Shown: one piece after another, positions 42,807-47,930 of the stretch
Numbering within the stretch: the first letter of the stretch is position 1
Layout of the letters: every line of letters starts with the position of its first letter
NCBI GenBank assembly: GCA_945865565.1
Contig: CAMBEK010000002.1
Span: forward strand, 7,901 to 71,900
Direction: 5' to 3'
DNA from: Pseudobacteriovorax antillogorgiicola
GTDB lineage: Bacteria > Bdellovibrionota_B > Oligoflexia > Oligoflexales > RGVZ01
Length of the DNA stretch: 64,000 nucleotides
Position numbers and translations under genes: made by a program
Notes under the pieces: model-generated
The model's database searches: none
The model's input: only the letters and a program-made list of their open reading frames with translations
What the model was told of the DNA's origin: nothing

Positions 42807-43413
42807 AGCCTGGGTTCAAGAGAAGCTAAAATTAGATCGCGATTATTTTACGGAACTGGCCCGGGACCAGAAACCCGAATTTCTTTGGATCGGATGTTCA
42901 GACTCCCGGGTTCCAGCGGAAGAAATCACAGGCACTCAGCCCGGTGAGATTTTCGTCCACCGCAATGTCGCTAATCTTGTGGTTCAGGCCGACCTGAATA
43001 TGCTCAGTGTATTGCACTACGCCATCGAAGTTTTAAAAGTCCGGCACGTGATCGTTTGTGGTCACTACGGGTGCGGCGGCGTCAGGGCAGCCATGACGAA
43101 TCAACAATTCGGAGTTCTCGATCAGTGGTTGCGTAACATCAAGGATGTCTACCATGACCACCGCGATGAAATTATGGCTGCGGGTGATGTGGAGGCACAG
43201 ACTAATCGTCTGGTTGAACTGAGTGTCTTTCAACAACTACACAACATCACAAAAACAGCTTCACTTCAACGTGCATGGAATCTGGACAAGCGCCCAACGT
43301 TGCATGGCTGGGTGTTTGGCATGAACGATGGCTTGCTGAAGAATCTTTACCGTCTCGATCCAGATTCTCCCATTGAGGATATTTATCGCTATGAAAACGA
43401 CGCGCTCCGGTAA
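42772..43413 (+). CDS. can: Beta-class carbonic anhydrase
   Basis: [18 protein letters not shown] and CGHYGCGG zinc-binding motifs. Confidence 0.95.
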
Positions 43414-44335
43414 CGGCGAAATCGTCGCAGGGTTTCTGGCGCCACATCCGCCACATCTTGTTTACGCCGAGAATCCGACCCAAAACGAGCCCAAGTCTCG
43501 CGGGGGATGGGAGCCGCTGCGCTGGGCCTACGAGAATTGCCGTCAGCGGATCAAGGAACTTAAGCCGGACGTGATTTTGGTCCATTCTCCCCATTGGCAG
43601 ACGGTTGTTGGGCATCATGTGACGGCAACGCCGCGGTTGGAAGGAAGATCGGTCGATCCAATCTTTCCTCACCTTTTTCGTTTTGATTACGGAATGGACG
43701 TCGATGTTGAACTAGCGGAAGCCATCGTGGATGAATGCAAGGGTGCAGGGCTTGAGGCTAAACCGATGCAGAATCCAAAGTTTCGTGTGGATTACGGAAC
43801 GATTGTTTCCCTGCACATGTTGAATCCCGATTGGGATATTCCTGTGGTGGGAATCAGTGCCAACAACAGTCCTTATTTCTATGATGATAAAATTGGCCAG
43901 GAAGAAATGTCCCAGTTGGGCCACGCAACGGCCAAGGCCATTGCAAAGACTGGCCGGCGTGCGGTCCTGGCTGCCAGCAACACTCTGTCGCATCTGCACT
44001 TTCCCCAAGAGCCAAATCCGGGTTTGCCGGAAGACATGTCGTGCGAGCATATTCAATCGCAAGCCCAATATGAATGGGACGTGAAAATCATCAATCTCCT
44101 TCGTGCTGGAAAAATCGACGAGTTTTTTGAGGTGATGCCACAGTTTTGCCGCGAGGCCTTTGCCGAGATCAAGGCTGGTGGACTGACGTGGATGCTCGAG
44201 GCAATGGGGCGTCCGCGTTACGGCGCAAAACTGCACGGCTATGGCACGGTAATCGGCACCGGAAACGCCGTGATGGAATGGCTTCCGGACAATAGTCCAA
44301 AGTCAGATTCTCAGGCCTCAGGGGGTCAAAAATGA
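43391..44335 (+). CDS. amnB: 2-aminophenol 1,6-dioxygenase catalytic beta subunit
   Basis: [62 protein letters not shown] and [15 protein letters not shown] match AmnB/CnbCb as recalled. Confidence 0.9.
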
Positions 44336-45141
44336 CCGTTGTTGCGCGGGCGCTTGTTTCTACGGCACCACAGTTGCTGAAACCCGAATTAAATCCAGCT
44401 TACGGCGGTCTCGTTAACGGACTTCAGGCAGTTGAGGTTGATTTCAAAAAGCTTGGCGTCGAACGGATCGTATACTGGAGTACCCAGTGGATCTCAGTTC
44501 TAGGCCAGATGTTCCAGGCAGGCAGCGATTTGACGGGAACTCATGTCGATGAAAATTGGCATGAATCGTGCGAATTACCGTTTCATTTTAGGGTCGATCA
44601 GAAGCTTGCTGCCGAATTGTGTGCTGGCGCAGCTAAAGCTGGTTTTCCCGGTCAATGCATCGATTACCGCGATTTTCCGGTGGATACGGCGACCATCATT
44701 GCCGACCGGTTTTTGAATCCCGATAAAATTCCGGTGACAATGGTGGCGTGCAATGTTTATTGCGACAATGAAAAGACAAAATCCCTGGCGAGCGAACTTT
44801 TCAAGATCCTTGAAGCCCGCAAGGAAAAAATTGCGATTGTGGCCGTTAGCTTGCTGAGCACGTCTTACCATACTTCCACGATAGATCTGCGCGAAGACGC
44901 CATTCGCGGTGACGAAGAGAATGCGTTTGTGGCCAATTTTGTTCGCGCGGTGTCATCCGCTGACTGGATCACCCTTTCAAAAACGATTGCTCATGATGGT
45001 GCCAAGATCCGGACAGATATGGGGTTAAAAGCCCTTAGCTGGTTGGAGGGGACCATGCCCGCTGGAAGGTTCAGTCAGCCATGGAATGTTTTGGTGACGG
45101 GCCCCTTGTATGGGGCTTCTGGAATTGTTGCTCAGCTTTAA
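44332..45141 (+). CDS. amnA: 2-aminophenol 1,6-dioxygenase alpha subunit
   Basis: [24 protein letters not shown] and RTDMGLK match AmnA/CnbCa as recalled; ATGA overlap with amnB. Confidence 0.8.
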
Positions 45142-45926: not shown

Positions 45927-47488
45927 GATTCCACCGATGCGGATTGAGAAGATCCCGTTGCTGCCGTTGTGATCGTTTTGTATTCGGAGAAGAAATCCAA
46001 ACTGTGACGTCCGCCTTCCCGGCCGATGCCGCTGCGCTTCATCCCGCCAAAGGCTGTATGCAAGTCGCGAATGAACCAGCCGTTGATCCACACCATGCCC
46101 ATGCGGACCGATCTGGCAAACTTTTGGGCCAGGGCGCCATCCCGGGTGTAGACGCTGCACGACAGGCCGTACGGAACGCCGCTGGTGAGGGCAATGGCCT
46201 CCTCGGCGGTCTTGAAGGTTTGCACTGTTAATACTGGCCCAAATATTTCTTCCTGGATCAGGCGCGAATTTTGCGCAACGCCTGCGATCACGGTGGGCTC
46301 ATAAAAAGCACCGTTGGCCAGTTGTTCCCCCAAGGATGCCGGAATCTTTCCGCCGCAGAGTATTTCTCCTGCGCCGGAAGTGCGCGCATGGTCAACAAAA
46401 GCGGCGACCTTGTCGCGATGATCATTGGCGATCAAAGCCCCCATCGTGGTGGCATCGTCGAGAGGGTCTCCGATCTTTATTTTTTTGACACAGGCCAGAA
46501 GGCGGTCAATCACTTGTGGAGCAATTTTTTCGTGAACGATGAGTCGGGATCCAGCCAGGCAAATTTGGCCTTGGTTCCGGAATGCAGCACGGCATGCCGT
46601 TGGCACTGCCAAATCCAAGTCTGCGTCTTCAAATATGACGCTGGCTCCTTTGCCGCCGAGTTCAAAAGACAACTTCTTCAGGCTGTCTGCCGCATCGCGC
46701 ATGATCGCGGATCCGGTGGTAGTTTCCCCGGTGAACGAGATGGCTTTTACGCCGGGATGACGGACCAACGCCTCTCCGGCACTTTTTGCGCCAAATCCGT
46801 GAACGACATTGACCACGCCCTCGGGGACTCCTGCCTCATTGAGAAGTTCACAAAGAAGCGTGGCGGAAAGCGGCGTGAGTTCCGCTGGTTTTAAAATGAT
46901 GGTGTTGCCTTGGGCGATGGCCGGCGCAAGTTTCCAAGTCGCCAGATAAAGTGGCAGGTTCCAGGGGGTGATCAGCCCAGTAACCCCAAGCGGCTCACGA
47001 ATGCTCGTGTGGTGTGATCCGTCGTCACCAATCCAGGTTTCAAAAGATTGATGCGCGGCGAGATCGCCGAAAAAGTGGAAATTTTGTGCGGAACGCGGAA
47101 TATCGCCGTTTCTGGTTTCAGAATAGGGTTTGCCAGTGTCCAGGGATTCGGCGAGGGCAAAGGTCTCGACGTTGGCCTCGATCAGGTCGCCAATCCGGTG
47201 CAGCAATTTGGCGCGGTCGGTCGCCGTGGCCCGACTCCATGGCCCAGCCGCCGCTTTTTCAGCGGCCTTTACTGCGAGGTCAATTTCCGGGGCTCCGCCG
47301 ACTGCAACTTCAAACCAACTTTCGTTGTAGGCGGACAAAGTTTTTTTGAAAGACTCGCCGCTGCTGCTGTCCAAATAGCGACCACCGATGAAATGCTGAC
47401 ACCGCTCCGGCAGAACCTGAGACTTTAAAAACTGTTTGCGATCAGATTTGTTGTGTTCGCAGCCGTGCTTCAATGGTGTCTCCTTCAT
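45923..47488 (-). CDS. Aldehyde dehydrogenase, 2-aminomuconate/2-hydroxymuconate semialdehyde dehydrogenase-like
   Basis: ITPWNLP, FTGETTTG, ELGGK, NQGQICLAGSR, EEIFGP and GREGGRHSLDFFSE; the FTGET and GREGG.HSLDF motifs are typical of the ALDH8/DmpC group. Confidence 0.85.
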   Translation of the reverse strand: MKETPLKHGCEHNKSDRKQFLKSQVLPERCQHFIGGRYLDSSSGESFKKTLSAYNESWFEVAVGGAPEIDLAVKAAEKAAAGPWSRATATDRAKLLHRIGDLIEANVETFALAESLDTGKPYSETRNGDIPRSAQNFHFFGDLAAHQSFETWIGDDGSHHTSIREPLGVTGLITPWNLPLYLATWKLAPAIAQGNTIILKPAELTPLSATLLCELLNEAGVPEGVVNVVHGFGAKSAGEALVRHPGVKAISFTGETTTGSAIMRDAADSLKKLSFELGGKGASVIFEDADLDLAVPTACRAAFRNQGQICLAGSRLIVHEKIAPQVIDRLLACVKKIKIGDPLDDATTMGALIANDHRDKVAAFVDHARTSGAGEILCGGKIPASLGEQLANGAFYEPTVIAGVAQNSRLIQEEIFGPVLTVQTFKTAEEAIALTSGVPYGLSCSVYTRDGALAQKFARSVRMGMVWINGWFIRDLHTAFGGMKRSGIGREGGRHSLDFFSEYKTITTAATGSSQSASVES

Positions 47489-47531
47489 TTTACAATTCGA
47501 CGGACTTGCCGCAGATTTTTCTCAAAAGTCC

Positions 47532-47930
47532 TCAGGGTGTAATTGCGACGGCCTTCATCTCAATGAAGTTGAGGCCTGGCAACTGTCGGACTGCGACCGT
47601 CGTCCGGGTCGGTCCTGAATGGCCTTCAAAAAATTTGTTCCAGATTTCATTCATCGCCTGAAAGTCCTTCATGTCCGTCAAGAAAACGTTGACGTCGATG
47701 ATGTGGCTGCGGTTGGCGCCCTCGGCCTGCAGGGCGCGCTCGATATTGGTCAGGACTCCCAGAGCTTGGGCACGAATGTCGTAGGATGCGACGGTTCCAT
47801 CGGGGTTCATCGTCAAGCCCGTATAAGTATTGGTTTGGGGGTCACGGCAGCCTTGGCCAGCGACGAAAATCAGGCCACCTGCGCGGCGCGTGTGGACATA
47901 GCTGGCAAGGGGTTTGGTCAGTTGGCTCAT
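47532..47930 (-). CDS. RidA-family protein, 2-aminomuconate deaminase-like
   Basis: YVHTRRAGGLIFVAGQG, FLTDMKDF and PTRTTVAVRQLP...IEMKA. Confidence 0.85.
   Translation of the reverse strand: MSQLTKPLASYVHTRRAGGLIFVAGQGCRDPQTNTYTGLTMNPDGTVASYDIRAQALGVLTNIERALQAEGANRSHIIDVNVFLTDMKDFQAMNEIWNKFFEGHSGPTRTTVAVRQLPGLNFIEMKAVAITP

Follow-up and report, generated by a model that had tools for sequence, protein, structure and literature searches.

Here, we describe a five-gene catabolic module in a 64,000-nucleotide stretch of the Pseudobacteriovorax antillogorgiicola genome (hereafter the window; C2:7901-71900 in a 2.5-Mb, 44-contig Oligoflexales genome that is 90% complete). In the module, amnB and amnA, which encode a 2-aminophenol 1,6-dioxygenase (AmnBA), converge on ridA and the genes for an aldehyde dehydrogenase (ALDH) and an atypical short-chain dehydrogenase/reductase (SDR). 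On balance, we favor the view that the five genes belong to a pathway of tryptophan catabolism that operates without kynureninase and has a reductive lower branch, and that they supply the half in which the ring is opened. That AmnBA, ALDH and RidA act on a 2-aminophenol is highly probable. That this aminophenol derives from tryptophan, through a luciferase-like monooxygenase (LLM) and a class-3 asparaginase homolog (AsnII) encoded elsewhere in the genome, appears likely from gene content and gene order across lineages.

In the proposed route, tryptophan 2,3-dioxygenase (TDO, encoded on contig C5) would convert tryptophan to N-formylkynurenine, from which the kynurenine formamidase KynB (contig C18) would release kynurenine. 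Kynurenine is an aryl ketone, and its side chain has the skeleton of aspartate. LLM would place an oxygen atom between the ketone and its aryl ring in a Baeyer-Villiger reaction, yielding a beta-aspartyl 2-aminophenyl ester or, after an O-to-N shift, the amide, an N-aryl asparagine. We infer that either compound would be a natural substrate for an asparaginase-like hydrolase; hydrolysis of the ester or amide by AsnII would give L-aspartate and 2-aminophenol, the substrate of AmnBA. The chemistry of LLM and AsnII is proposed from their gene context and from the nature of the partner hydrolase. AmnBA is predicted to cleave the ring of 2-aminophenol to give 2-aminomuconate 6-semialdehyde, which ALDH and RidA, in either order, would convert to 4-oxalocrotonate/2-hydroxymuconate and ammonia. 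Finally, the SDR would reduce the conjugated C=C bond with NAD(P)H to give 2-oxoadipate, replacing the decarboxylase/hydratase/aldolase branch.

Several lines of evidence identify the AmnBA, ALDH and RidA proteins as a genuine AmnBA/AmnC/AmnD-type set, in agreement with the first-pass annotation of the window, which had joined a 2-aminophenol dioxygenase to an aminomuconate branch. First, AmnB matches PF02900 (LigB; E = 2e-27, 96 bits) and is 64% identical to crystallized CnbCb, the beta subunit of 2-amino-5-chlorophenol 1,6-dioxygenase (3vsg_B; E = 7e-130); its identity to enzymes crystallized with 2-aminophenol-type substrates is 64-67%. The stretches APHPPH, LVHSPHW and AFAE(I/V)K are identical in the alignment of AmnB with 3vsg_B, and within them lie His13, His62 and Glu251 of CnbCb, which we take to be its iron ligands (two His and one Glu). 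AmnA aligns over its full length with CnbCa (3vsg_A; E = 2e-33) and gives a weak match to PF02900 (19.6 bits), and with one LigB-fold beta subunit and one diverged alpha subunit encoded by adjacent genes, the enzyme belongs to this family of dioxygenases. Second, ALDH (PF00171, E = 2e-156) has as its best solved relatives 4i1w (E = 4e-134), 4npi and 5kj5 (E about 1e-134), all of them 2-aminomuconate-6-semialdehyde dehydrogenases. Third, the best solved relative of RidA (PF01042, E = 3e-27) is the 2-aminomuconate deaminase 6izh (E = 9e-22). An AmnC-type semialdehyde dehydrogenase and an AmnD-type deaminase are, then, encoded beside the dioxygenase. As to the order in which the two act, RidA is fused to AmnA in an Oligoflexaceae metagenome-assembled genome (MAG; locus L041), and ridA directly follows amnA in Marine Group II (MGII) archaea, a hint that RidA may deaminate the product of the dioxygenase and leave 2-hydroxymuconate semialdehyde to ALDH. 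Early deamination would also prevent cyclization to picolinate. The best NCBIfam match of ALDH, TIGR03216 (2-hydroxymuconic semialdehyde dehydrogenase; 544 bits, below the cut-off of 693), fits either order.

The open reading frames (ORFs) and their translations resolve the locus into two converging gene groups, and the coordinates, the gene order and the 4-bp overlap at which amnB-amnA meets ridA-ALDH-SDR, as first annotated, were all reproduced. The stop codon of amnA (TAA, 45139-45141) and that of the SDR gene (45138-45140, minus strand) lie within a single TTTAAA. The amnB stop and amnA start share an ATGA overlap, as do the ALDH stop and the start of the SDR gene, which is translationally coupled to the ALDH gene; ridA and the ALDH gene are separated by 44 bp. 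The start codon of amnB is preceded by GAGGA 11 nt upstream of the ATG, and the gene overlaps the end of the upstream carbonic anhydrase gene by 23 nt.

The absence of the canonical lower-pathway genes, first noticed in the window, extends to the whole genome. Proteins encoded on pCNB1 and the P. veronii plasmid served as tblastn queries against the 2.5 Mb: the hydratase, the decarboxylase, 4-oxalocrotonate tautomerase (4-OT), the acylating acetaldehyde dehydrogenase and DmpG gave no match at E <= 1e-3, while the same approach recovered AmnB, AmnA, AmnC and AmnD. The module would thus correspond in function to the upper half of the amn/cnb pathway. Lacking the decarboxylase/hydratase of the fumarylacetoacetate hydrolase family (FAH), the aldolase and the acylating acetaldehyde dehydrogenase, the module is not a canonical amn/cnb/nbz operon. 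Moreover, among 80 related genomes searched with a Bdellovibrionota FAH query, the FAH pair occurs in only nine genomes, all of Bdellovibrio type, and is absent from every Oligoflexales-type, Vampirovibrionales and MGII genome. This distribution shows that the missing lower pathway is a property of the lineage and not an assembly gap.

Three steps of the classical kynurenine pathway were looked for in the genome. TDO (PF03301, 148 bits; C5:69290-70168) and KynB (TIGR03035 at 218 bits, slightly under the cut-off of 223; C18:2730-3356) are present, and no TIGR01814 match, i.e., no kynureninase, was found in the genome. Thus, of the earlier remark that kynurenine genes are lacking, the part concerning kynureninase holds genome-wide and the part that would include TDO and the formamidase does not; 3-hydroxyanthranilate, which had been offered as the source of the aminophenol, is not supported, since it cannot be made without kynureninase. 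It is accordingly very improbable that AmnBA cleaves a substituted aminophenol of the classical pathway (3-hydroxyanthranilate or 3-hydroxykynurenine) in place of free 2-aminophenol. Such a role would be in keeping with the presence of TDO and KynB, 3-hydroxykynurenine is itself an o-aminophenol, and LLM could in principle hydroxylate instead of carrying out a Baeyer-Villiger reaction; however, kynureninase, required for 3-hydroxyanthranilate, is missing here and from 67 of 69 LLM-positive genomes, AmnB closely resembles enzymes crystallized with 2-aminophenol-type substrates, and the asparaginase-like hydrolase would be left without an obvious role.

The genes for AsnII (C2:270391-271371) and LLM (C2:271399-272556) stand side by side, some 219 kb away from amnB. 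LLM belongs to the luciferase TIM-barrel fold (PF00296 on the L009, L041 and L111 orthologs) and is matched by no NCBIfam model. With its structural model (pLDDT 91), the top Foldseek matches are RslO1 (7bip, the best), 8cbb, bacterial luciferase (1luc), SsuD/MsuD, RutA and 5aec/4uwm, i.e., FMN-dependent oxygenases that work through flavin peroxides, and no entry with F420 in its title is among the top 50. LLM shares its fold with the type II Baeyer-Villiger enzyme 3,6-diketocamphane monooxygenase (5aec, 4uwm; Foldseek E about 1e-12, TM about 0.63), although sequence identity is 13-16% and RslO1 is the better structural match. AsnII (PF06089, E = 4e-50 in the genome search) retains the RSxxKP, SHS, CSGKH and TDxC motifs of the class 3 L-asparaginase ReAV of Rhizobium etli (7os3), and is therefore probably an active hydrolase. 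It differs from ReAV in being distant (about 70 bits, phmmer), adjacent to LLM and, in Bdellovibrionia, fused to KynB; it is proposed to act on a beta-aspartyl aryl ester or anilide rather than on asparagine. Vampirovibrionales also carry a separate canonical asparaginase II.

The link between these genes and the ring-cleavage module comes from other lineages. AmnB relatives, drawn from 185,579 species genomes, were found in Oligoflexales, Bdellovibrionia, Vampirovibrionales, Binatia-like lineages and MGII archaea, and clustering of the neighboring ORFs returned three recurrent additional neighbors: a protein of the cyclase family (PF04199, to which kynurenine formamidases belong), AsnII (PF06089) and LLM. 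In the Oligoflexaceae MAG, a single co-directional operon reads SDR-LLM-AsnII-ALDH-AmnB-AmnA::RidA-KynB. Vampirovibrionales have KynB-AsnII-LLM divergent from amnBA-ridA-ALDH-SDR. At 13 loci of Bdellovibrio-type, Myxococcota-labeled or unclassified genomes, LLM lies near a convergent TDO gene and an AsnII::KynB fusion, a single protein of 511-544 aa encoded directly after LLM in most of them; at four loci, amnB-amnA-ridA-ALDH-FAH-FAH stands immediately upstream of LLM. Bdellovibrionia show this gene order close to a convergent TDO gene, with AsnII fused to KynB. In the one MGII locus examined (L138), a formyltransferase-like gene is followed by SDR, LLM, AsnII and ALDH in an operon. In Oligoflexales, the loci around LLM relatives show the LLM-AsnII pair standing alone. 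The fusion of AsnII to KynB suggests that the two hydrolytic steps are consecutive, in which case N-formylkynurenine is an equally possible substrate of LLM. The connections of LLM and AsnII to TDO, kynB and amnBA support the earlier idea of a natural rather than xenobiotic aminophenol. As a separate observation, the formyltransferase-like protein of the MGII locus (L138:5717-6487, G083:C14) is a 256-aa Formyl_trans_N protein encoded directly before SDR-LLM-AsnII-ALDH; it might stand in for a KynB-type formamidase and act on the formyl group of N-formylkynurenine.

The distribution of the genes points in the same direction. In an unbiased sample, all 131 genomes of the phylum in the collection searched, 63 carry both LLM and AmnB, 57 carry neither, nine carry LLM without AmnB and two AmnB without LLM; i.e., AmnB is present in 63/72 LLM-positive and 2/59 LLM-negative genomes (Fisher p = 9e-25, phylogeny ignored), and the exceptions include several MAGs with a completeness of 70-85%. 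In the separate set of 80 genomes reached through loci, LLM orthologs (> 380 bits) are cleanly separated from generic paralogs (< 90 bits) and were detected in 10/10 MGII and 13/13 Vampirovibrionales genomes searched and in none of the Binatia-type genomes with AmnB. AsnII accompanies LLM without exception in this set (69/69 LLM-positive and 0/11 LLM-negative genomes) and adjoins it wherever both positions are listed; TDO is encoded in 66 of the 69. Kynureninase exceeds the cut-off in two of these 69 genomes, while the five LLM-negative genomes with TDO all carry a kynureninase-like gene, in four cases beside TDO. The phylum sample gives a similar picture, with kynureninase in 3/72 LLM-positive and 17/59 LLM-negative genomes. 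This near-exclusion is the pattern expected if LLM and AsnII displace kynureninase.

The SDR is the most unusual component of the module. It matches adh_short_C2 (E = 6e-50) and keeps the Rossmann motif GGSSGLG, NNVGG and Ser144, but the classical YxxxK is absent: VSSSMRS stands in its place, with S157-x3-R161, i.e., Ser/Arg for Tyr/Lys. Without the catalytic Ser-Tyr-Lys, the protein is not a classical SDR. The residues S144, S157, R161 and K169 are invariant in eight cluster-linked orthologs from three lineages, including Oligoflexales and Vampirovibrionales. Among solved structures it is closest to 5idx, 2z1n and 1o5i, for which the entries give no specific function, and to AerF of Microcystis (6jh7), followed by BacG/YwfH of B. 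subtilis (3u49). Against AerF, the SDR of the window reaches 146 bits and the L009 ortholog 160 bits, and the corresponding range against BacG/YwfH is 116-130 bits. The AerF stretch LVKSGVVNAAL aligns with LAVSNAVRAAV of the L009 ortholog, the catalytic Tyr being missing in both; by sequence and by this loss, the SDR falls into the Tyr-less subgroup that contains AerF. Both AerF and BacG/YwfH are NADPH-dependent C=C reductases of the SDR fold, and their substrates are alpha,beta-unsaturated 2-oxo acids. There are also clear differences: identity is about 30-35% (an estimate rather than a tabulated value), so the proteins are not orthologs, the Ser/Arg of the cluster SDR corresponds to Ser/Asn in AerF, and AerF and YwfH act on cyclic prephenate-derived intermediates of secondary metabolism, whereas the proposed SDR substrate is an open-chain dicarboxylate. 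AerF, the nearest characterized relative of the SDR, is an NADPH-dependent C=C reductase, to go by a title cited in PMC10143770.

Three observations support the SDR as a conserved member of the pathway. First, orthologs, sought with a profile of the cluster SDRs, score at least 340 bits in Oligoflexales-type genomes, most Vampirovibrionales and the Oligoflexaceae MAG, and 220-233 bits in MGII archaea; 45 FAH-free genomes with the pathway encode the SDR. Second, in one Oligoflexales genome the ridA-ALDH-SDR triad is intact 18 kb from amnBA. Third, of the 11 LLM-positive genomes without AmnB, 10 lack the SDR. Because it is absent where LLM and AsnII occur without AmnB, the SDR belongs with the ring-cleavage part and not with the LLM step, and we regard its use as a flavin reductase or other partner of LLM as unlikely. 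We suggest that the SDR reduces 2-oxohex-3-enedioate, or reduces 2-aminomuconate with subsequent imine hydrolysis by RidA, so that 2-oxoadipate is formed; this assignment, drawn from homology and gene context, is a close call that falls slightly short of probable, and it stays the best idea because the closest characterized relative is a C=C reductase. The reduction would re-use the NADH produced by the coupled ALDH.

A number of observations weigh against the pathway as proposed, and they bear on two of its links. The first is the origin of the aminophenol. In this genome the pathway parts are scattered over four places (two sites on C2, and C5 and C18), so that TDO, kynB, LLM and AsnII all lie away from amnBA and ridA-ALDH-SDR and the window itself shows no link to tryptophan. 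The Binatia-type genomes searched have AmnBA and an SDR of the same subfamily without LLM/AsnII. AmnB is missing from 9/72 LLM-positive genomes of the phylum sample and from 12/46 of the locus set, implying that the LLM module is able to stand alone. In addition, most of the genomes are MAGs, so that absences carry assembly error, and the co-occurrence statistics ignore phylogeny. The scattering and the Binatia-type genomes would also fit a module that degrades external aminophenols (from nitroaromatics, benzoxazinoids, phenoxazinones or prey metabolites), has no tie to tryptophan and is connected to LLM/AsnII through some other shared substrate, as would the fact that all characterized AmnBA enzymes come from aminophenol or nitrobenzene degraders. 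We nevertheless consider this explanation improbable: operons in three lineages join TDO, kynB, LLM and AsnII with amnBA, AsnII is fused to KynB, LLM and AmnB strongly co-occur, LLM/AsnII and kynureninase are almost never found together, and no nitroreductase or mutase genes were noted in the earlier reading of the sequence, although no search was aimed at them.

The second link is the role of the SDR. A Bdellovibrionota operon (L137) contains FAH-FAH followed by an SDR-like gene whose product has 38% identity and the same Ser/Arg motif, so that coexistence with the decarboxylase branch is possible. Consequently, although no genome combines a high-scoring SDR (>= 290 bits) with the FAH pair, a strict complementarity in which the SDR replaces FAH is weakened; of the proposal that an SDR stands in for the usual lower pathway, the conserved membership of the SDR in the pathway survives and its status as a strict substitute does not. 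Vampirovibrio chlorellavorus and a relative (G073, G074 and G076; loci L035, L036 and L038) have AmnBA, LLM, AsnII and TDO, and they give no SDR match at E <= 1e-60 and have no RidA or ALDH gene beside amnBA; they may represent a truncated version of the pathway. Finally, PROSITE patterns identify four acyl-CoA dehydrogenases in the genome, and no glutaryl-CoA dehydrogenase could be assigned among them (three were scanned, none reaching any NCBIfam cut-off). We therefore weighed whether AmnBA, ALDH and RidA act as described while the SDR does something other than make 2-oxoadipate: direct reduction of 2-aminomuconate, as by the metazoan enzyme ASPDH, action as a ketoreductase on 4-oxalocrotonate, reduction of quinone imines that arise as side products from 2-aminophenol, or a role alongside LLM. 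The L137 operon and the lack of an assignable glutaryl-CoA dehydrogenase are compatible with such a role, as are the position of the SDR gene directly beside LLM in MGII, the Oligoflexaceae MAG and several Vampirovibrionales genomes, and the direct reduction of 2-aminomuconate by ASPDH in animals (10.64898/2026.06.05.730449). It is nonetheless rather unlikely in our view, given that LLM/AsnII genomes without AmnB nearly all do without the SDR, which indicates that the LLM step does not need it, that in Oligoflexales the SDR is coupled to ALDH and stays with ridA-ALDH when far from amnBA, and that its closest characterized relative reduces a C=C bond and is not a ketoreductase. Thus, we retain formation of 2-oxoadipate as the preferred assignment. 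Separately, amnB-amnA-ridA-ALDH-FAH-FAH-SDR-like of L137 is followed on the same strand by a gene for a homolog of AurF-like di-iron arylamine N-oxygenases (L137:11233-12102, G026:C21).

The AmnB tree places the protein of the window within a well-supported Oligoflexales clade. The bacterial subclades of the tree are Oligoflexales, Bdellovibrio-type, Vampirovibrionales, Binatia-type and, on a separate long branch, the classic degraders (pCNB1, P. veronii); MGII AmnB and that of the Oligoflexaceae MAG lie on the opposite side of the midpoint root. A recent transfer from pollutant degraders is therefore rejected. The phylogeny, which the first-pass annotation had called for with horizontal transfer in mind, shows no sign of recent acquisition, and its description of the lineage as unexpected does not hold either, since amnB occurs in 65 of the 131 genomes of the phylum. 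Within our sample, the amn genes of degraders are one branch of a family found mostly in environmental bacteria and archaea that are not known as degraders. In the Binatia/'delta' MAGs (L008, L014, L016, L018, L021, L025 and L028-L032), the amnBA pairs have no gene for RidA or ALDH at their side, and their neighbors are MprF-like, MetE-like, formate-THF ligase or metallo-beta-lactamase genes. Those genomes of this group that were searched lack the LLM/AsnII pair, and five of them encode both TDO and a kynureninase-like protein, with the two genes side by side in four. The substrate or role of AmnBA may differ there.

Table 1. Genes of the module and its surroundings (window coordinates).
Feature	Coordinates	Strand	Description
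sulP	41205-42806	+	SulP-family transporter
beta-carbonic anhydrase	42772-43413	+	
amnB	43391-44335	+	Catalytic beta subunit of 2-aminophenol 1,6-dioxygenase; LigB fold
amnA	44332-45141	+	Non-catalytic alpha subunit of the dioxygenase; 3vsg_A match
SDR	45926-45138	-	Atypical, Tyr-less; candidate NAD(P)H-dependent C=C reductase after 2-aminomuconate/4-oxalocrotonate
ALDH (amnC-like)	47488-45923	-	2-Aminomuconate or 2-hydroxymuconate 6-semialdehyde dehydrogenase; PF00171
ridA (amnD-like)	47930-47532	-	RidA-family deaminase of the 2-aminomuconate deaminase type; PF01042
pxpC-like	48732-47989	-	Short, 247 aa; only the C-terminal part of the profile is matched
pxpB-like	49490-48729	-	253 aa

The genes that flank the module (Table 1) are best regarded as plain neighbors. 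The sulP and beta-carbonic anhydrase genes, which overlap by 35 nt (41205-43413), form a bicarbonate-transport pair with which amnBA may perhaps be co-transcribed; beyond the closest relatives (L001-L004) the arrangement is not retained. The pxpB/pxpC-like pair lies directly upstream of ridA on the same strand and is conserved in L001-L003 and L005 only; no PxpA was seen near it. Because both pairs are confined to the closest relatives (L001-L005) and the module of other lineages lacks them, we rejected them as parts of the pathway. Scans for promoters and terminators in 40900-50900 returned no more hits than shuffled sequence and were uninformative on operon boundaries. Farther out, 49650-52645 encodes two proteins without a Pfam match, one of 360 aa with a signal-like N-terminus and one of 596 aa, both conserved beside the module in L001-L003, and a DEAD-box helicase gene (37398-39218) specifies a long C-terminal tail of GGYRGGSNGGSS repeats, with spurious Ala/Thr-rich ORFs on the opposite strand.

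Tryptophan degradation has two textbook exits from kynurenine, the kynureninase and kynurenine 3-monooxygenase (KMO) routes. We tentatively propose that bacteria and MGII archaea possess a third, made up of LLM, AsnII, AmnBA/ALDH/RidA and the SDR, in which the SDR gene would be the first from any prokaryote for the reduction that yields 2-oxoadipate. In the full-text literature, subscription journals not being covered, we found no paper that links kynurenine to 2-aminophenol through an LLM or Baeyer-Villiger step or that assigns the SDR, and the route from tryptophan to 2-aminophenol is apparently undescribed. If correct, an exit that yields aspartate and 2-aminophenol would give an essential amino acid a new route of degradation, present in globally abundant plankton (MGII archaea) and in predatory bacteria (Oligoflexia, Bdellovibrionia, Vampirovibrionales). 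The 2-aminophenol dioxygenase would gain a physiological role, and the amn genes of pollutant degraders would share a family with, and may derive from, a widespread natural tryptophan pathway, which could suggest where the genes of nitrobenzene and chloronitrobenzene degraders originated. Functions would also be available for three enzymes, i.e., the divergent LLM, the class-3 asparaginase homolog and the Tyr-less SDR subgroup. The SDR is a candidate for the step that forms 2-oxoadipate, to which the literature found assigns no prokaryotic gene; the animal counterpart of the step after 2-aminomuconate was identified only in a 2026 preprint (10.64898/2026.06.05.730449).

The module can be compared with three known systems. 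Like the amn cluster of Pseudomonas sp. AP-3 and the P. veronii plasmid and the cnb cluster of Comamonas testosteroni CNB-1 (pCNB1), it has adjacent amnB and amnA genes (64% and about 30-33% identity), an AmnC-type ALDH (46-47% identity to CnbD and P. veronii AmnC) and an AmnD-type RidA (42.5% identity to AmnD of the P. veronii aniline-site plasmid and 28-29% to other RidA proteins of amn/cnb clusters). In contrast to these clusters, its genome lacks the FAH decarboxylase/hydratase, 4-OT, aldolase and acylating acetaldehyde dehydrogenase and has a Tyr-less SDR coupled to ALDH; the module is chromosomal and inherited within Oligoflexales rather than plasmid-borne, and its input is probably endogenous tryptophan rather than a pollutant. 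With metazoan ASPDH, which reduces 2-aminomuconate directly, it would share an NAD(P)H-dependent reduction that comes right after 2-aminomuconate, in organisms that lack the decarboxylase branch from 4-oxalocrotonate; however, the fold of ASPDH is unrelated to that of SDRs, its product is 2-aminohex-3-enedioate (10.64898/2026.06.05.730449), and the module described here adds a RidA deaminase, as in fungi. The third system is the classical kynurenine pathway. That pathway, as in Burkholderia cenocepacia and the nba genes of P. fluorescens, proceeds through TDO, KynB, KMO, kynureninase, 3-hydroxyanthranilate 3,4-dioxygenase (3-HAO), ACMSD (the decarboxylase acting on 2-amino-3-carboxymuconate 6-semialdehyde), 2-aminomuconate 6-semialdehyde dehydrogenase (AMSDH) and a deaminase. 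The two would start alike, with TDO and the formamidase, and converge again on 2-aminomuconate semialdehyde, AMSDH and a RidA-type deaminase. In between they differ: kynureninase is absent, kynurenine would leave by oxygen insertion and hydrolysis to aspartate and 2-aminophenol, and the ring would be opened by AmnBA and not by the cupin 3-HAO.

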